DNA from: Escherichia phage EAWsc9
DNA: 64,000 nt
Reading direction: 5' to 3' (one strand)
Sequence record: PQ341120.1
Shown here: piece after piece, positions 5,161-51,637 of the stretch
Layout: each line of letters begins with the position of its first letter
How positions within the stretch are numbered: the stretch's first letter is position 1
Translations under genes and position numbers: made by a program
Notes under the pieces: generated by a model
Told to the model about the DNA's origin: nothing
What the model saw: only the letters and a program-made list of their open reading frames with translations
Database searches by the model: none

Positions 5161-5518
5161 TTGTATATTTGGCTACAAGCTTCCAGTCGTCTTTTTGTTT
5201 AAAGGAGATAACACGGAAGTTGTTTGTTACTGCGAACAATTCATTACGCTCTTCTTCTTTGATAGTGATTAAGCCCCAGTCTTCGAGCAGTTGAGTGATG
5301 GAATCACGGCGCTGATAGTCTTCACCATCAATATCCACCTGGCGACCATCCATACGCAGCATTTCTTTGAAGTGAACAATATAATAACGGCCTTGCTTTT
5401 GGAGGATGTGACAGCTCTGGTAAAGTACACGGTCTTTATTATTTGCGATGCCCATACGGGTCAGAGTTTCTTTAACTTTCAGGAAGTCTTCAGGTTGCTT
5501 TAATGTAATTTCAATCAT
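5150..5518 (-). CDS. regA: RegA translational repressor
   Basis: 122 aa; MIEITLKQPEDFLKVKETLTRMGIANNKD... matches T4 RegA along full length. Confidence 0.93.
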   Translation of the reverse strand: MIEITLKQPEDFLKVKETLTRMGIANNKDRVLYQSCHILQKQGRYYIVHFKEMLRMDGRQVDIDGEDYQRRDSITQLLEDWGLITIKEEERNELFAVTNNFRVISFKQKDDWKLVAKYTIGN

Positions 5519-5519
5519 T

Positions 5520-6098
5520 TTACCATTCCAATATTTGTTTTTTAATTTCTTTTTGTTCTTTCACATTACTGGTAACGGTCTTTAAGAATTCATCCGTCAC
5601 CAGACCTTTTGTCTTTTTCAAAACATCTTTAAGACTACCTTTGGCTTTCAATGTTTCCATATACATCAAAGCATCATCTGCATTAATTGTATAATATTTC
5701 ATTAAAAGCTTTAACACAAGCTGGACGCTGACTACATCCGGCTCAGCCTTAGCCCATTTGCCATAACGCTTACCTTGCGGAACTGCATGCAGCAAATAAT
5801 TATAATGCTGTTGGTCTGTTAACCCGGAACCGATTAAGTTCATCACGTTCACCTGCATAATGCAATCGACATGTTGGCTCAATGCGTTTTCCAACCAGAA
5901 TTTATTGTAGTTTTCCGATTGAATCAGGTTCCGTGGTTTTTTACTAACGGTTATGTCATTAAGAATCGCGAACAATTCATTTTCTGCTTTCTCTTTGTAT
6001 GAATCGGACAATTCCTGAATTTTGTTAAAGTCGCGTGATTTCCACGCAACCTCATGTTCGTTTAATTGAACGTCATCATCAAAGAGACTTACAGCCAT
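5520..6098 (-). CDS. 62: Clamp loader small subunit gp62
   Basis: 192 aa ORF in the conserved regA-62-44-45 order; size matches T4 gp62. Confidence 0.85.
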   Translation of the reverse strand: MAVSLFDDDVQLNEHEVAWKSRDFNKIQELSDSYKEKAENELFAILNDITVSKKPRNLIQSENYNKFWLENALSQHVDCIMQVNVMNLIGSGLTDQQHYNYLLHAVPQGKRYGKWAKAEPDVVSVQLVLKLLMKYYTINADDALMYMETLKAKGSLKDVLKKTKGLVTDEFLKTVTSNVKEQKEIKKQILEW

Positions 6099-25621: not shown

Positions 25622-25689
25622 TTTATTCTCCAGTATTTGGTAACTCAGTATGGGAACATTATACGCCCATCCCCATACCATGTACACAT

Positions 25690-26205: not shown

Positions 26206-26246
26206 TTTATTCTCCGTTTGTTTATTTGGTAACTCAGTATGAAATC

Positions 26247-26276
26247 ATTATGCATCATGACCATCTGGTTGTACAC
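26247..26276 (-). promoter_or_regulatory. Early promoter (GTGTAC-18-CATAAT) of repeated cassette family
   Basis: Same cassette recurs at 25622-25690, 45004-45086, 45555-45636, 46063-46140. Confidence 0.4.
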
Positions 26277-43460: not shown

Positions 43461-44007
43461 TTTGAACCCCTTTAGCATATTCACGACATTCAGCAATAAA
43501 ACGATTAAGCTTACGTTTCCGTTTACGACCCTCTAATGTGTACTCAGCCGCCAAATCAAGAAGCTCATCTTTATCATAATTTTTAATATCAGTATAAGTT
43601 GGGCGGCGGTCAACCATTCCAAAGTGGTCACCATTTTCCAACATCAAATAACACACCAAATGGTCATCATCGTCCGCATTAATAAGCTGCTTATAATCAC
43701 TTGGTTCATTTAACGCATACACAGAATAACTCAGCCCAGCGAATTCCACTCGTTGAATACCCAGATTTACGTCAATAATTTCCAAGGCATCTGCAAAAGA
43801 AAGGTCTTCAGCTAAAGCAAAAATAAAAGGCAATTTGGTAGTATCGCCGCGACTTGTTGTTCTTCTTAAGAAATCATTGGAATAACCCAAGTCGCGGCGG
43901 ATTCTATAAAGAACTGTGTTAGTTTCAGTGGCAAGACCACTACCGCCAAACCATTCCACATTTGATAAAAGATTATCATATAAAGTCATAATTTTCTCCT
44001 CTCCCAA
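43435..44007 (-). CDS. Hypothetical protein with C-terminal FIAEC motif
   Basis: 190 aa; ends ...KLNRFIAECREYAKG... Confidence 0.5.
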   Translation of the reverse strand: MGEEKIMTLYDNLLSNVEWFGGSGLATETNTVLYRIRRDLGYSNDFLRRTTSRGDTTKLPFIFALAEDLSFADALEIIDVNLGIQRVEFAGLSYSVYALNEPSDYKQLINADDDDHLVCYLMLENGDHFGMVDRRPTYTDIKNYDKDELLDLAAEYTLEGRKRKRKLNRFIAECREYAKGVQNANAISAK

Positions 44008-44031
44008 TTAGGGGGCTTTGCCCCCTTTATC

Positions 44032-44625
44032 TTACTTAAGTGAATTGATGTATTCTTCAATGTCAGCGGACGTGGTATCCACACCAACCTGTGGACCTTT
44101 GAAGGTTTCAACACGCATCAAGGTGTCTTCAATATCAATCTTAGTCAATGCAGCGATTTCAACAACATCATCTGCAGTCGCAATACCCAGGGCAGATACC
44201 TTACGGGTTTCGCGGATGTATTCCAGTTTAACAGCTAGTTCCTGACGAGAATCATCCAGCTCTTTAACTTTCAATTTAATTTCATTACGCATTTCAACAT
44301 AATCGTCTGCCTTCTTACGAAGTTGTTTAGCAGTGCGACGATACAGGAGACCCAGTTTAGCATGGACCTGGACATCCGCACCATCAGCAATCAGTTTGCG
44401 GATTTCACGCTCTTTTGAGGCGGCAAGTTGGTCTTTTTCATTCGCTAACTCGCGGATGCGTTTTTCTTCATTAACAGACTTAACGTGGGCGGTCTGGAGC
44501 TCAGTAATCTTGTCAATCAGGGTAGACGCCGCTTGAGTATATTGGTCTTCAATAGACAGGTTTTTTGCCATTGCAGTACCCAGTTTGGAGCGGATGAATT
44601 CAACAAGTTTCTTTAAAGTATTCAT
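44032..44625 (-). CDS. Coiled-coil protein, tentatively PspA/IM30-like
   Basis: 197 aa, almost entirely heptad-type helical sequence with N-terminal amphipathic helix; family assignment tentative. Confidence 0.45.
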
Positions 44626-44697
44626 GGTATTTCCTTCAGTTGGTTAATGTTTTATTATCCAGGGAACATACTATCATGTTCCCATTAAAGCACTAAT

Positions 44698-45003
44698 TTA
44701 GATTTTGTTTTCCTGCACACCATAATAAAGTTCATCAGACACAATATCCAGGATGCGGCGAACATATTCATCATGGTATTGGCAGTCAAAATCAAATGCA
44801 ACAGTAGTTTCCGCTTCACGAGTGAATTTAACTTGCACATTCAGGTGATTAACAACGTTAGTTAATTTATCAGTAAAGAACTCTTTTGCTACCGCCTGTT
44901 GGACTTGCACTTTAAACTTGGTGTTGCGAATCATATTTTCAGCAGATGCGAAATTACCAGTTTTATCAAAGTCAACAAGCGCCAGGTTGATGATGAATTT
45001 CAT
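44698..45003 (-). CDS. Hypothetical protein behind repeated promoter/leader cassette
   Basis: 101 aa ORF. Confidence 0.5.
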   Translation of the reverse strand: MKFIINLALVDFDKTGNFASAENMIRNTKFKVQVQQAVAKEFFTDKLTNVVNHLNVQVKFTREAETTVAFDFDCQYHDEYVRRILDIVSDELYYGVQENKI

Positions 45004-45086
45004 TTTATTCTCCAGTGTTTTATTTGGTAACTCAGTATGGAATCATTATGCCTTAAAGCAGGGGGCTTGTATACCCCCTTTTTGAA

Positions 45087-45554
45087 TTAAATTTCAAATT
45101 CTTTGCGGAAGTTGGAAGCATAAGACTGAACTGATGCTTTGTTGAATCCAAACTCACGCACAATCATATCAATAACAGCTCTGCGAGCAGCACCATTAGA
45201 CATATTAACAGTTTTGAACATATCATAGCATAAATCTTTGTTGCTCATACCGGAGCGTTTAGGTGCCTTACGTTCAGCTTTTGGTTCAGCTTTTGGTTCA
45301 GCTTTTGGTTCAGCTTTAGGAGTAGGTTTAACTTCTGGTTTAACCTGTCCATCATTCAGACCTTTAAAAATTTTACCTGCCAGAGTTGCCAGTTTAGCAG
45401 CTTCGCCACGAGTGATACCAAATACTGCCGGGTTAAATGAAATACCTTCAGCTGCCAGACGTTTGAAGAACATACGTGCTGCGGATTGTGCTTCAGCTTC
45501 AGAAGAGTTGTTTAATGCCAGCTTAACGTACTTAACCAGTTTTGAAGTTTTCAT
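45087..45554 (-). CDS. Hypothetical protein with (PKAE)n repeat and conserved C-terminal domain
   Basis: 155 aa; PKAEPKAEPKAEPKAERKAPKR linker; C-terminal GAARRAVIDMIV...VQSYASNFRK shared with 45637..46062. Confidence 0.55.
   Translation of the reverse strand: MKTSKLVKYVKLALNNSSEAEAQSAARMFFKRLAAEGISFNPAVFGITRGEAAKLATLAGKIFKGLNDGQVKPEVKPTPKAEPKAEPKAEPKAERKAPKRSGMSNKDLCYDMFKTVNMSNGAARRAVIDMIVREFGFNKASVQSYASNFRKEFEI
45277..45318. repeat. 12 bp tandem repeat (about 3.5 copies) inside CDS
   Basis: gcttttggttca x3 plus partial copy; encodes the PKAE repeats on the minus strand. Confidence 0.8.
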
Positions 45555-45595
45555 TTTATTCTCCAGTGTTTTATTTGGTAACTCAGTATGGGATA

Positions 45596-45625
45596 ATTAT
45601 ACACTATCCCACCTGGAAGTAAAAC
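45596..45625 (-). promoter_or_regulatory. Early promoter (TTTTAC-17-TATAAT) of repeated cassette family
   Basis: Minus strand gtgTTTTACttccaggtgggatagtgTATAAT followed by conserved leader. Confidence 0.4.
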
Positions 45626-45636
45626 ACTTTTCTCAA

Positions 45637-46062
45637 TTATTTTTGAGCTTTGCGGAAGTTGGAAGCATATGACTGAACAACAGTCTTTTTGATATCATAG
45701 GTGTTAACCAGAACATCAATCAGGGCGCGGCGAGCTGCACCATCTGCCATATCAATTTCTGCAAATGCCTGGAAGCAAATGTCACGAGCATTACCAGATT
45801 TGGACTGGATTTTTTCTTCTTTAACTTCTTCAATTGGGAATTCAATCATTTCAGCTTGGATTAATTCAATGATAGATTCTTTTGACTGTTTGGTGTTTAC
45901 CTTCAGTTCAGAATTAAGGGACTTAGCGATGGCAACAATCTGGGTTGAAGTCAGATGAATAAGTGCATCTTCACGAATGCAGATTTCACATACTTCGTCG
46001 GCAACCATTTTGTTAGTGATGCGGGTAACAGAGAATGCAGAAGTCAGGGTCAGGAAGTTCAT
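45637..46062 (-). CDS. Hypothetical protein, paralog of 45087..45554 C-terminal domain
   Basis: ORF 45637..46143 (non-ATG start codon) trimmed to ATG preceded by conserved leader ...ggagaaataaaATG. Confidence 0.55.
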   Translation of the reverse strand: MNFLTLTSAFSVTRITNKMVADEVCEICIREDALIHLTSTQIVAIAKSLNSELKVNTKQSKESIIELIQAEMIEFPIEEVKEEKIQSKSGNARDICFQAFAEIDMADGAARRALIDVLVNTYDIKKTVVQSYASNFRKAQK

Positions 46063-46168
46063 TTTATTTCTCCAAAGTTTTGTTTGATTCAGTGTGTAAC
46101 TCAGTATGGAATCATTATGCATCCAGTCAATTCGGATGTACACTACTTTTTGAAGAAATATTAAAAAT

Positions 46169-46188
46169 AAACCCGCCGAAGCGGGTTT
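46169..46188 (-). terminator. Rho-independent terminator with UUCG tetraloop
   Basis: Minus strand aaacccgcTTCGgcgggttt followed by atttttaatattt. Confidence 0.55.
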
Positions 46189-46190
46189 GA

Positions 46191-46745
46191 TTAGTTCTTA
46201 TAAAAGCGGAACGGATTTATATGAAAGGCGAGCATAGCCTTAGGGATTGGTCGGGACAGAAGACTCTTGAGCTTCCAGCCACAATAAACACGCAGATAAA
46301 AGGTGATTCCACCGACCTTAAGATAAGGAACAGAAGCAAAAACACCCCAGGCATTATCCGTCCACATCCAGAGCCAGCCATGGTGAGCTTTGTCTGGGGA
46401 GCCGGATTCAACATCAGGATTACCTTTATAATGGAATTCTGAATTGCAATCACGACCAAGCTTGTGGTAAGCAAAATTGTATGCTTTATTTCGCCAGAGC
46501 CAGGCTACTCGTTGGAAGTAAACACCTAACGGCCATTTTCGGATTTTTGACCAACGTTCGACATGACCCCGGTCACCATCAATCGGATTGTCATATGTCA
46601 TCATCCAATCAAATCCGAACGGAAGTTTACCAGTCTTTTTATTATGGAATGGAACTACAAATGGAGCCAGGATAACGGCCAGAATCATGGAGATAAAATC
46701 CAGCGGAACTAACAGAATCCAACTCAAATATTTTAACAGTTTCAT
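46191..46745 (-). CDS. Hypothetical N-terminally membrane-anchored protein
   Basis: ORF 46191..46823 (non-ATG start codon) trimmed to internal ATG; MKLLKYLSWILLVPLDFISMILAVILAPFVVPF then W/H-rich soluble domain. Confidence 0.5.
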   Translation of the reverse strand: MKLLKYLSWILLVPLDFISMILAVILAPFVVPFHNKKTGKLPFGFDWMMTYDNPIDGDRGHVERWSKIRKWPLGVYFQRVAWLWRNKAYNFAYHKLGRDCNSEFHYKGNPDVESGSPDKAHHGWLWMWTDNAWGVFASVPYLKVGGITFYLRVYCGWKLKSLLSRPIPKAMLAFHINPFRFYKN

Positions 46746-46834
46746 ACGTTTCTCTTTAGTTGATTTATAAAAAAGCCCCAACCTTTCGGAAGGGGCTATA
46801 CCTTGTCGGGGTTCCACCTGCAAGGCAAGTGTTC

Positions 46835-47218
46835 TTATCCGCGAGCGAATGCCATTGCAGCGCGTTCGTTGGCACGGTCGGTGATGTTCAAGAATTTATC
46901 ACGAGCAATTTCGATTGGGGCGCCGACCCAGTCAGCAGCACCATTACCCGGAGACTGTTTAGGGCGAACCATATAAGTTGAAACTTTGGAACCAGCTAGT
47001 TTGGCACCTGGCGCCGCGGCATTTTTAACGTCTTTAGCTTTGATGCCAAACCCAGTTACGATACCCCAAGAAACGCCATTAACTGGTTTCTTGAACATAA
47101 CACGGTCACCAATTGAAACACCGGCTTTTTCTGGAGCCACTAAAGAAAATTTACCAGCTTCAGTCAGTACGGATTCGGTGATGGTATTGCGATTTAAAAA
47201 TTCTGCATATGTAAGCAT
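46835..47218 (-). CDS. Hypothetical late protein (possible IP-like N-terminus MLTYAEFL)
   Basis: 127 aa; perfect late promoter TATAAATA 32 nt upstream. Confidence 0.55.
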   Translation of the reverse strand: MLTYAEFLNRNTITESVLTEAGKFSLVAPEKAGVSIGDRVMFKKPVNGVSWGIVTGFGIKAKDVKNAAAPGAKLAGSKVSTYMVRPKQSPGNGAADWVGAPIEIARDKFLNITDRANERAAMAFARG

Positions 47219-47249
47219 TTTGTTTTTCCATTATTAGGGTTGTTGTTAA

Positions 47250-47257
47250 TATTTATA
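47250..47257 (-). promoter_or_regulatory. T4-type late promoter TATAAATA
   Basis: Minus strand TATAAATA upstream of 46835..47218. Confidence 0.6.
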
Positions 47258-47451
47258 TTCCATAGTACCGGATGCACCATCCGCTCGGATTTCTCATACT
47301 ACCGGACGCACCGTCCGCTCTGGAAAAACTCCGTTAAAAGGGTGCGCCGTTTCAGCTGTGGTAGTAAAGAACCAGAACACAGTAAAACTGTGGGAGGAAC
47401 TATACTTCAGGGAACTTCAGTCCGACGACTTACCGGTAGCGACCCGGTTTC

Positions 47452-47706: not shown

Positions 47707-47783
47707 TGGTCGGGGTGGTGGGATTCTAACCCACAACCTACGGTTTAGAAGACCGTTGCTCTATACAATTGAGCTACACCCCG
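47707..47783 (-). tRNA. tRNA-Arg (anticodon UCU)
   Basis: Hand-folded cloverleaf: acceptor 7 bp, D stem gctc/gagc, anticodon stem acggt/accgt with loop cuUCUaa, T stem gtggg/cccac, encoded CCA; unusual D-loop and T-loop (U19/A56). Confidence 0.7.
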
Positions 47784-47859
47784 GGTGGCCCCATCCGGAC
47801 TTGAACCGGAAACCTGCCAGTTATGAGCCGGATGCTCTAACCAATTGAGCTACAGGGCC
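47784..47859 (-). tRNA. tRNA with anticodon CAU (Met or lysidine-modified Ile)
   Basis: Hand-folded cloverleaf: acceptor ggccctg/tggggcc, D-loop aattggtta, anticodon loop cuCAUaa, T arm tccgg-ttcaagt-ccgga; 3' end encodes CC only; abuts tRNA-Arg. Confidence 0.7.
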
Positions 47860-49361: not shown

Positions 49362-49616
49362 TTATTTTTTAGGGATACGATAGTAACGCATCTCAACATC
49401 TTTCTGCTTGTGCCACTTTTTGATAAGGTCTTCAGAACCTTTAATGGTAACGATGTCATAGCGACCATCATGCGATACTTCAGCACTTAACTGCATGAAG
49501 TTGTCTAGTGAACGGCGCAATTCCTCATTAGAAAAACTACCACGCGGGGAACCAACATAAGCAAACTCAACTTTTGCATCTGCGGCTTCGTTAATAAATT
49601 CTTGATAAGTTTTCAT
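49362..49616 (-). CDS. Internal protein (IP-type)
   Basis: 84 aa; N-terminus MKTYQEFINEAADAK matches T4 IP capsid-targeting sequence. Confidence 0.7.
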   Translation of the reverse strand: MKTYQEFINEAADAKVEFAYVGSPRGSFSNEELRRSLDNFMQLSAEVSHDGRYDIVTIKGSEDLIKKWHKQKDVEMRYYRIPKK

Positions 49617-49641
49617 GTTGTCTCCAGTAGTTGATGGGATA

Positions 49642-49671
49642 ATTATACTGCAGTTATCCCATCGCGTATAC
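49642..49671 (-). promoter_or_regulatory. Early promoter (GTATAC-18-TATAAT)
   Basis: Same cassette as 49333..49361. Confidence 0.45.
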
Positions 49672-49672
49672 T

Positions 49673-49915
49673 TTATTTTAAGTCTTCCAGACGTTTTTTC
49701 ATCTTGGTGCCATTCTTAGCAATTTCGCCAGCATCAGAACAAAGAGCGAGGAGAGCTTTAACTTTACCCTGGTCGCCTTTAAAAGATGATGCATCTACAG
49801 AATCAGCAAGTTCTTTGATACGTGCAAACAGGCGCTCTGCTTCAGCAAGGGCTTGGCCAAGTTTAACTTCCATACCATGGGAAGATTCTGTTATAAATGT
49901 TTGATAAGTTTTCAT
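49673..49915 (-). CDS. Internal protein (IP-type)
   Basis: Start set to internal ATG giving MKTYQTFITESSHG...; GGAGAcaacATG. Confidence 0.65.
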   Translation of the reverse strand: MKTYQTFITESSHGMEVKLGQALAEAERLFARIKELADSVDASSFKGDQGKVKALLALCSDAGEIAKNGTKMKKRLEDLK

Positions 49916-49960
49916 GTTGTCTCCAAGCCATAAAAAGGGGATAATTATCCCCATTTGTTA

Positions 49961-50260
49961 TTACATCTTACTACCACGAATTACGCCATAAGCGGCGAAG
50001 TCGTCAGTGATATTTTTAGGGGTGTTCTTACCAGTTTCAATGAAGGCAATGCTTGATTTCTGACTAAAAGAGGTAATTTTGTTATAGTTAGAGTCAAGGA
50101 AGGTATAACCATTTTTACGCAACTGGTCAAAGTCTTCAGCGTCGCCTTTACCTTTGAAGTCAACCCATTTGTAGGTGTTTTTCTTCTGAAGGCCCAGAGG
50201 CCAGGTTTTTGCTTCTGCTAGGTAATTGTTTTCTACCAAAAATTCATGAAAAGTTTGCAT
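49961..50260 (-). CDS. Internal protein (IP-type)
   Basis: 99 aa; N-terminus MQTFHEFLVEN; shares GDAEDF...NGY motif with 36426..36686. Confidence 0.65.
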   Translation of the reverse strand: MQTFHEFLVENNYLAEAKTWPLGLQKKNTYKWVDFKGKGDAEDFDQLRKNGYTFLDSNYNKITSFSQKSSIAFIETGKNTPKNITDDFAAYGVIRGSKM

Positions 50261-50268
50261 TTGAAATC

Positions 50269-50541
50269 CTATTTTAAATAAATTGCATATTTTTTATAAC
50301 CAGCCGTCTCATGACGGAGACCCTTGTCATTGGCAAAACGCTCAATGTTATTAATTTGGTTCTGGTCAAGTTCTGAAATGTCAAACGCGAAAAAGTTGCG
50401 TTTGTTGCCAATTGTTATATGGTCAGTTAAGTCAATGCTATACAGGTGATTGATATTGTCAATCATAGCTTTGACCGCTTTACTAATTTTTACTTCTTCA
50501 TTCAGTTGTGACTCGTTGAAAAATTCATTGAAAGTTTTCAT
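50269..50541 (-). CDS. Internal protein (IP-type)
   Basis: 90 aa; N-terminus MKTFNEFFNES. Confidence 0.65.
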   Translation of the reverse strand: MKTFNEFFNESQLNEEVKISKAVKAMIDNINHLYSIDLTDHITIGNKRNFFAFDISELDQNQINNIERFANDKGLRHETAGYKKYAIYLK

Positions 50542-50549
50542 AAGAAACC

Positions 50550-50882
50550 TTATTTATAAAGTTTTGCCAGTTCTTTACGTCCGCGAGCAGACATAATAAA
50601 TTGTTCATCGCCAATTTTAAAATAAGCCATACCGCCGTCAACAGCGATACCAATTTCTTTAGTACCTTCTTTGCCTTTCCACTTGCCACCAGATTTCAGG
50701 ACAGCTTCAACTGCAGCTTTGGAATATTTGGACGTTTGAAAACGTTCATTACCAATCTGAAAGAAAACACCATCTGCATTTTTGGTTAAACCAAATTTCA
50801 GAGAGCCTTCACTATCATCAATTGATTTGGTCTCATTGATGGCGGATTCGGCTAAAAACTCGTTGTAAGTTTTGATGTTCAT
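50550..50882 (-). CDS. Internal protein (IP-type)
   Basis: 110 aa; N-terminus MNIKTYNEFLAES. Confidence 0.65.
   Translation of the reverse strand: MNIKTYNEFLAESAINETKSIDDSEGSLKFGLTKNADGVFFQIGNERFQTSKYSKAAVEAVLKSGGKWKGKEGTKEIGIAVDGGMAYFKIGDEQFIMSARGRKELAKLYK

Positions 50883-50946: not shown

Positions 50947-51637
<691 letters not shown>

Follow-up and report, generated by a model that had tools for sequence, protein, structure and literature searches.

The 64,000-nt stretch of Escherichia phage EAWsc9 analysed here (record PQ341120.1; hereafter the window, numbered from its first nucleotide) is from a Gaprivervirus genome (Straboviridae, Tevenvirinae; the T4-like SP18/VR7/VR20/VR25/VR26 group), and it carries two neighbouring small genes, which we call A and B, whose products share a C-terminal domain and differ in their N-terminal halves. 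Gene A (45087-45554, minus strand) encodes a 155-aa basic protein (isoelectric point (pI) 9.96, net charge +13) and corresponds to SP18gp147, while gene B (45637-46062, minus strand) encodes a 141-aa acidic protein (pI 5.5, net charge -2) and corresponds to SP18gp148/VR7ORF147c; the positions of both open reading frames (ORFs) are those given in an earlier reading of the letters of this stretch (the original prediction). A 168-aa ORF with a GTG start was also considered for B and set aside as a mechanical extension only; the ATG at 46062 fits both the Shine-Dalgarno of the upstream cassette and the homologues. In the PHROG collection, A matches phrog_18416 (E=3.2e-89) and B matches phrog_9997 (E=1.7e-69). 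Both families are labelled 'unknown function' and cross-match each other via the C-terminus, and the relatives of B are annotated as hypothetical proteins.

The original prediction held that A and B combine a shared C-terminal module with unrelated N-terminal halves, and staked this on formal alignment. BLASTP aligned the two proteins with 36 of 86 residues identical (42%, E=7e-20), the alignment being confined to the C-termini; the N-terminal halves gave no BLASTP alignment even at E<=100, and the claim therefore stands. The shared module is about 50 aa long. BLASTP, AlphaFold2 (AF2) models and a hidden Markov model (HMM) together place it at residues 104-155 of A (45090-45245, minus strand) and residues 91-141 of B (45640-45792, minus strand). 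An HMM scan of the window matched A (1.6e-28) and B (6e-29) only, and the idea of a third copy of the domain inside the window was dropped accordingly.

The AF2 models predict three helices for the domain in both proteins: residues 105-113, 121-135 and 139-153 in A, with a predicted local distance difference test score (pLDDT) of ~90 (mean over the whole protein, 74), and residues 92-100, 108-122 and 126-140 in B, with pLDDT ~85-88 (whole-protein mean, 81). The predicted N-terminal halves differ, being all-helical in A and composed of three strands plus helices in B. We aligned the C-domains of 26 diverse members of the family and found a Cys and a Phe invariant in helix 1. In helix 3, V, Q, S and Y are invariant and the subsequent S and R nearly so, which implies that both faces of this helix are fixed; the motif (V)VQSYASN(F/Y)RK hardly varies between the phages of Escherichia and those of Acinetobacter.

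At the level of fold, the assignment of the C-domain to the homeodomain-like three-helix helix-turn-helix (HTH) class is reasonably supported: the predicted bundle is compact, and its helices 2 and 3 form a helix-turn-helix. A search of the 26-member profile against all PDB sequences returned the homeodomain ATBF1 (2da3) as its best match (E=0.0068), in alignments that place KKRVVQSYASNyR on KKRVVQVWFQNTR and GfkKrvVQSYASnyR on GLKKRVVQVWFQNTR. In this register the family's Y-A-S-N-x-R falls on homeodomain W48-F49-Q50-N51-x-R53, and equivalents of N51 and R53 are present.

This likeness must be interpreted cautiously, as several observations caution against making too much of it. An hhalign comparison with a homeodomain alignment (ten sequences) recovered the same register with a probability of only 4.5%, no Pfam Homeodomain (PF00046) match was obtained at E<=1-5, and unrelated helical proteins (Bcl-2, TOG) score similarly. 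The mean net charge of the C-domain is +3.4, whereas nine of ten homeodomains used for comparison range from +7 to +13, and Y-A stands in the phage domain where homeodomains have W48-F49. The BEN domain (PF10523) gave no Pfam match either. In contrast to homeodomain and BEN proteins, the phage C-domain has an invariant Cys in helix 1, and its proteins are phage-borne, putative DNA binders. For neither the classical homeodomains nor BEN is homology thus established.

Other searches returned little. Pfam, NCBIfam and PADLOC scans of A, B, a stand-alone copy of the domain described below and many homologues gave nothing above threshold, and matches to Trypan_PARP (on the repeat in A), PBP_like and CT847 were at chance level and were discarded. 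A phmmer search of full-length A and B against PDB gave no match, BFVD yielded family members and unnamed proteins only, and a literature search on the locus tags turned up only a proteomics table for Morganella phage MP1. The C-domain family is therefore undescribed in the searched literature and domain libraries, though its kind is familiar, namely an HTH-like module in accessory early phage proteins, attached through a low-complexity linker and encoded between promoter cassettes of a published type (PeSL, below).

The N-terminal domain of A (residues 1-68; 45351-45554, minus strand) is modelled by AF2 as three helices within residues 3-58 and carries the motif LALNNSSEGEA..AARMFF, with invariant columns LALNNSS..E..AARMFF. 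It may be DUF2786-like, which we regard as a lead only: two A homologues (P0006 and P0026) match DUF2786 (PF10979) over profile positions 3-28 with 14 bits (E ~0.045), below the Pfam gathering threshold of 23.9 bits, and A of the window gives no match. DUF2786 itself has no function recorded in the searched library. The N-terminal domain of B (residues 1-76; 45835-46062, minus strand) is acidic (pI 5.0) and a candidate HeH/SAP-like domain; its AF2 model has three short strands followed by helices at 31-36, 39-49 and 61-74, the last two joined by a near-invariant loop, NSELKVNxKQSK. A profile of this domain had no match in PDB and found B-type proteins only, with a single occurrence lacking the C-domain, in a fragment. 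In both proteins a linker separates the two domains. That of B (approximately residues 77-90; 45793-45834, minus strand) varies in length and sequence among homologues and is probably disordered, given a pLDDT below 50 at residues 82-89.

The linker of A (residues 69-103; 45246-45350, minus strand) is rich in P, K, A and E, has a pLDDT below 50 at residues 70-99, and contains a perfect 12-bp tandem repeat (CCAAAAGCTGAA on the coding strand) at 45272-45317 (minus strand) that encodes (PKAE)4. Tandem Repeats Finder reported 3.8 copies of the 12-bp unit, 100% identical, with a score of 92; the repeat had been placed at 45277-45318 by the original prediction, within a few bases of this result. In the coding frame, CCA AAA GCT GAA repeated four times gives PKAEPKAEPKAEPKAE, followed by the degenerate RKAPKR, a basic stretch that closes the linker immediately ahead of C-domain helix 1. 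The suggestion that the copy number could vary was borne out by the alleles of the window and its relatives, which have 1, 2 or 4 PKAE units and differ in whole 12-nt steps. A single unit is found in ECML-359 (143 aa), two in most Gaprivervirus genomes (147 aa; 164-aa records represent the same allele with an upstream start annotated), and four in the window (155 aa). The exact 155-aa A protein of the window is absent from a collection of 15 billion sequences. Phage TH40 has a separate 12-nt loss in the adjoining VKPEVKP stretch. In the A orthologue of SP18 (L002), three consecutive units share one G-to-A change (Ala to Thr) and read PKTE-PKTE-RKTP, a pattern that suggests homogenisation, or concerted evolution, within the array.

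All observed repeat alleles are in frame, and the linkers of A-type proteins span 21-37 residues (36 in the window) and are generally rich in P, K, A, E and Q. Given that the alleles stay in frame and that the linker length lies inside the family range, the repeat is a spacer and not an on/off switch: (PKAE)n forms an in-frame, probably slippage-prone segment of a linker predicted to be disordered. Interdomain spacers rich in Pro, Ala, Lys and Glu are familiar from, for example, the EP/KP region of TonB and the linkers of E2 lipoyl domains. Like these, the linker of A is a low-complexity, P/K/A/E-rich, predicted-disordered interdomain spacer of variable length; it is not homologous to them, however, and its repeat, perfect at the DNA level in units of 12 bp, arose very recently.

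We then considered how widely the family is distributed. Homologue searches gave 6 clusters for A and 19 for B, and an exhaustive search of the C-domain profile over 1.84 billion representative proteins recovered only ~13 true clusters, with no fusion of the C-domain to any known domain. The architectures are A-type, B-type, an A-like form with a variant N-terminus (P0028 and P0035), an A-type form that carries an insertion (P0032, 198 aa) and stand-alone domains of 69-74 aa. Within a phage genome collection, members of the family were present in Gaprivervirus, Morganella phage MP1, Acinetobacter phages 133 and ZZ1/Henu6/W16, and Erwinia phage RF1. RF1 and a metagenomic contig (L014) belong to a ~45-kb phage type with a Phage_portal_3 portal and are accordingly not T4-like. 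Neighbouring genes in the order B then A are found in Gaprivervirus, a T4-like contig (L010), RF1 and L014; in L010 the synteny DUF7338-B-A-...-e.6-...-nudE-e is kept at 55-60% identity, and in MP1 the order is A then B, one gene apart. The members from MP1, RF1/L014 and L010 are 45-60% identical to their Gaprivervirus orthologues. The Acinetobacter phages have the B type only.

Between B and A, RF1 has an HNH endonuclease gene (L006 4159-4662) and L014 a 65-aa ORF (5456-5653), and the B-A pair of both is oriented against the neighbouring genes. In the T4-like Acinetobacter phages 133 (L008 2725-3162) and ZZ1 (L009 2743-3162), the single B-type gene is transcribed opposite to all surrounding genes, by the tRNA cluster; its early-type promoter reads GTTTACA-17-CATAAT, and its leader resembles the coliphage cassette described below.

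As both types coexist in distant phage lineages, A and B are ancient paralogues that travel together and not the product of a recent local duplication. One may postulate, alternatively, that they arose by a recent local tandem duplication with swapped N-termini, or that (PKAE)n acts as a phase-variation switch of A. The 3' ends of the two genes do contain a 31-nt stretch that is 97% identical (45101-45131 and 45648-45678), the codons for VQSYASNFRK agree at 29 of 30 nt, and the 100% identity of the repeat units implies a recent expansion. Outside the VQSYASNFRK motif, however, the two domains are only ~47% identical at the DNA level, and MP1, RF1/L014 and L010 already carry both types, 45-60% identical to the Gaprivervirus orthologues, which makes the duplication ancient. 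The repeat, for its part, has a 12-bp unit of four codons and differs from a contingency locus in that its 1-, 2- and 4-unit alleles never shift the frame, and it therefore cannot act as a frameshift switch. We regard this alternative as contradicted by the data and extremely improbable. The 31-nt similarity could point to recent exchange, and it might be a trace of micro gene conversion or mark a recombination anchor; gene conversion between the 3' ends was considered specifically, and the 29/30-nt agreement is suggestive, but ten codons are too few for a conclusion. In the RF1 pair, the VQSYASNFRK codons have five synonymous differences.

A third paralogue lies outside the window. VR7ORF277c (71 aa, phrog_17275) matches the shared module only, at 39-43% identity to the C-domains of B and A, and tblastn found this stand-alone form in 33 of 33 Gaprivervirus records with 97-100% identity. 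In VR7 (L011 10327-10542, minus strand of the record), a distance of 2 nt separates its stop codon from the start of motA, and it is preceded by nearly the same cassette subtype as B. From this arrangement the stand-alone paralogue is predicted to be the first gene of the motA transcription unit and to be co-transcribed with it.

The region around A and B (44000-47300) was matched in 145 phage records, the best being Gaprivervirus at 97-98% identity over the full length. All genes here are on the minus strand, in the order tRNA-Met/tRNA-Arg (47707-47859), two small ORFs, a DUF7338 gene, B, A, an SP18gp146-like gene (44698-45003) and e.6 (44032-44625), and the locus is a hyperplastic region of T4-like genomes, between e/e.6 and the tRNA cluster. 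The DUF7338 gene directly upstream of B (46191-46745, minus strand; E=1.1e-62) encodes a predicted membrane protein and holds the same place in the divergent contig L010. Both A and B had been said to sit behind a repeated promoter cassette, and this is what we found. A 52-nt repeat family has three copies at the locus, at 44998-45049, 45549-45600 (96% identical) and 46067-46118 (69%), which precede the gene after A, A itself and B, respectively. The window contains five copies of the family's 22-nt core, with zero expected. The two further cores, at 25641-25662 and 26230-26251 (TAACTCAGTATGG.AT.ATTAT, plus strand), each lie ahead of a minus-strand ATG and are ~20 kb from A and B, and the cassette is therefore dispersed and not local.

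An alignment of the five cassettes gives a consensus of a -35-like GT(G/T)TACA, a spacing of 16-17 nt, (C/T)ATAAT, a conserved leader CCATACTGAGTTACCAAAT..., then GGAGAATAAA and the ATG. The predicted early promoter and leader before A (45555-45623, minus strand) read TTTACT-16-TATAAT (10 of 12 matches), CCATACTGAGTTACCAAAT and a GGAG Shine-Dalgarno; those before B (46063-46142, minus strand) have TGTACA-17-CATAAT, and the third cassette, downstream of A (45004-45079, minus strand), has TATACA-17-CATAAT and would drive the next gene (44698-45003). A MotA-box middle promoter was also considered for that gene and rejected: its TGCTTTA lies 3 nt from the -10, and the required spacing is 12 +/- 1 (PMC2988021). 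A terminator scan placed a strong intrinsic terminator upstream of the B cassette (46169-46188, minus strand; AAACCCGCTTCGGCGGGTTT followed by a T-run), and a polyG/polyC stem-loop (GGGGG...CCCCC) is present after A at 45060-45079. The latter has a T-run on the plus side only and thus scores as a terminator for antisense (plus-strand) transcription; on the coding strand it corresponds to the stem of the cassette type discussed next. An Rfam scan found the two tRNAs only, and the conserved cassette leader corresponds to no known RNA element there.

Promoter-early stem-loop (PeSL) elements of T4-type phages combine a sigma70-like promoter with a stem-loop or terminator, often polyG/polyC, and with the beginning of an ORFan together with its Shine-Dalgarno; they are repeated in hyperplastic regions and mediate modular shuffling (Arbiol et al. 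2010, PMC2839356; Comeau et al. 2014, PMC4122927). The cassettes of the window share these properties: a repeated sigma70-like early promoter, a stem-loop or terminator, and flanking ORFans with indels between relatives. The stem-loop feature is clear in two of the three copies, the cassette before A having a weak inverted repeat around the -10 only, without an obvious G/C stem. As with PeSLs, these ~50-100 bp intergenic repeats flank genes that are gained or lost among close relatives; the published cases, in contrast, are RB49/phi1, PST and nt-1, and the cassette of the window has its own conserved leader, CCATACTGAGTTACCAAAT.

Comparison with relatives documents this turnover. In MN01 (L012 833-1129) and VR7 (L005 2733-3029), an extra 297-nt gene (98 aa, VR7ORF146c-like) with its own cassette lies between B and A, so that in MN01 four genes are served by four cassette copies; the extra gene is absent from the window (matching site ~45555-45636), which amounts to an indel of a PeSL-type cassette. 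In VR7 (L005 3103-3309), A is cut after residue 62 by a deletion into the e.4 region, and the SP18gp146-like gene and e.6 are lost; VR7 is a natural mutant without the A C-domain. Sigma70-type promoters with a GGAG Shine-Dalgarno lie upstream of A, B, the stand-alone copy, and the homologues in Acinetobacter and Erwinia phages. RegB cleaves GGAG Shine-Dalgarno-type sites in T4 early mRNAs such as motA (PMC2988021), and by analogy the GGAG of the A and B cassettes may be a RegB-type site.

The early, sigma70-type character of these promoters bears on the idea that A and B are associated with the virion, as packaged or DNA-bound proteins that would be delivered along with the genome and have a role like that of T4 internal proteins. 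This idea draws on the detection of the MP1 homologues by electrospray ionisation tandem mass spectrometry in purified phage (gp117, four peptides, 28.9% coverage; gp119, two peptides, 14.6%; PMC5384007) and on the ~3 kb that separate A and B from the window's internal-protein locus. The same MP1 preparation, however, also included many evidently non-structural proteins (exonuclease A, dCTPase, a UvsX-like protein, topoisomerase, Ndd and dNMP kinase), and its authors caution that identifications with fewer than four peptides may be impurities (PMC5384007). The N-termini of A (MKTSKLVKYV) and B (MNFLTLTSAF) lack the capsid-targeting MKTYQEF(I/L)xE of true internal-protein genes, and the promoters of both genes are not of the late type. 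We consequently hold packaging to be very improbable and read the detection of gp117 and gp119 reported in that study as expression of the homologues. The internal-protein locus itself (49362-50882, minus strand) has five consecutive small genes whose N-termini resemble the T4-type capsid-targeting sequence (MKTYQEFINE, MKTYQTFITE, MQTFHEFLVE, MKTFNEFFNE and MNIKTYNEFLAE) and repeated 5' ends (repeat family D1), and a 57B-like ORF lies at 50947-51402.

The interpretation that we favour, tentatively and at a little short of an even chance, is that the shared C-domain acts as an HTH of the homeodomain-like kind and anchors different N-domains at a single conserved target, with DNA as the likeliest. 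The analysis shows the paralogy, the predicted architecture, the repeat polymorphism, the cassettes and the conserved B-A adjacency; the DNA binding and the tethering logic are what we infer here. The main competing explanation, which we consider rather unlikely, is that the C-domain is a protein-protein docking module, either for a host or phage protein (e.g., RNA polymerase, sigma, the replisome or the nucleoid) or for hetero-association of A with B, with the N-domains acting on the partner. Several of our observations count in favour of docking and to that extent against a DNA target: the charge of the C-domain is modest in comparison with most homeodomains, as given above, B is acidic overall, and the invariance of helix 3 over phages of Escherichia, Morganella, Erwinia and Acinetobacter suits a conserved protein as well as it suits DNA. 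The stand-alone paralogue, moreover, heads the motA unit, in a neighbourhood of sigma70-binding factors (PMC2988021), and A and B always co-occur (setting apart the B-only Acinetobacter phages). On the other side, the closest matches, by structure and by sequence alike, are to HTH domains bound to DNA, in a DNA-reading register, the conserved exposed Q, S, S, N, R and K are typical DNA contacts, a basic arm precedes helix 1 in A, and no partner is indicated by the present data.

On the favoured reading, A and B are accessory, immediately-early expressed proteins, each built of a family-specific N-domain, a flexible linker and the shared three-helix domain. The latter would dock on a single conserved target. 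This is most probably DNA, contacted through the exposed Q/S/S/N/R/K face of helix 3 with the aid of the basic stretch before helix 1, and docking would bring two N-modules (basic and helical in A; acidic, with beta strands and HeH, in B) to one and the same site at an early point in infection. The motA-linked stand-alone copy would occupy the same target while delivering nothing, and may compete. The (PKAE)n repeat, prone to replication slippage, would tune the length of the tether only, and the PeSL-type cassettes may double as recombination points and so account for the gain and loss of genes around A and B.

In their design, small early proteins with a target-binding and an effector domain joined by a linker, A and B resemble T4 MotA and other modular early factors. 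The DNA-binding domain of MotA, however, adopts a 'double wing' alpha/beta fold in place of a three-helix HTH (PMC2988021). MotA is not similar to A or B in sequence, and nothing points to A or B touching RNA polymerase. A bolder version, to which we give a small chance, is that A, B and the 71-aa protein form a competition circuit on one DNA element, read by an invariant N51/R53-type recognition helix, with A and B bringing different effector domains to it and the bare domain as a competitor or placeholder. If true, such a circuit would give some T4-like phages a level of control over early genes or the nucleoid that has not been described before, and its corollary would be a genuine phage-borne relative of the homeodomain/BEN-type HTH.

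The hyperplastic regions of T4-like phages harbour early ORFans by the hundred, candidates for roles in host takeover or anti-defence. Our analysis defines among these a compact, non-Pfam domain with three architectures, a mapped distribution and a testable helix 3 surface, and it provides a natural example of PeSL-flanked cassette turnover together with in-frame polymorphism of linker length. Should the domain not bind a defined DNA element or host factor, A and B would be an ordinary accessory gene pair; if it does, they would represent a new family of small regulators in the T4 early programme.

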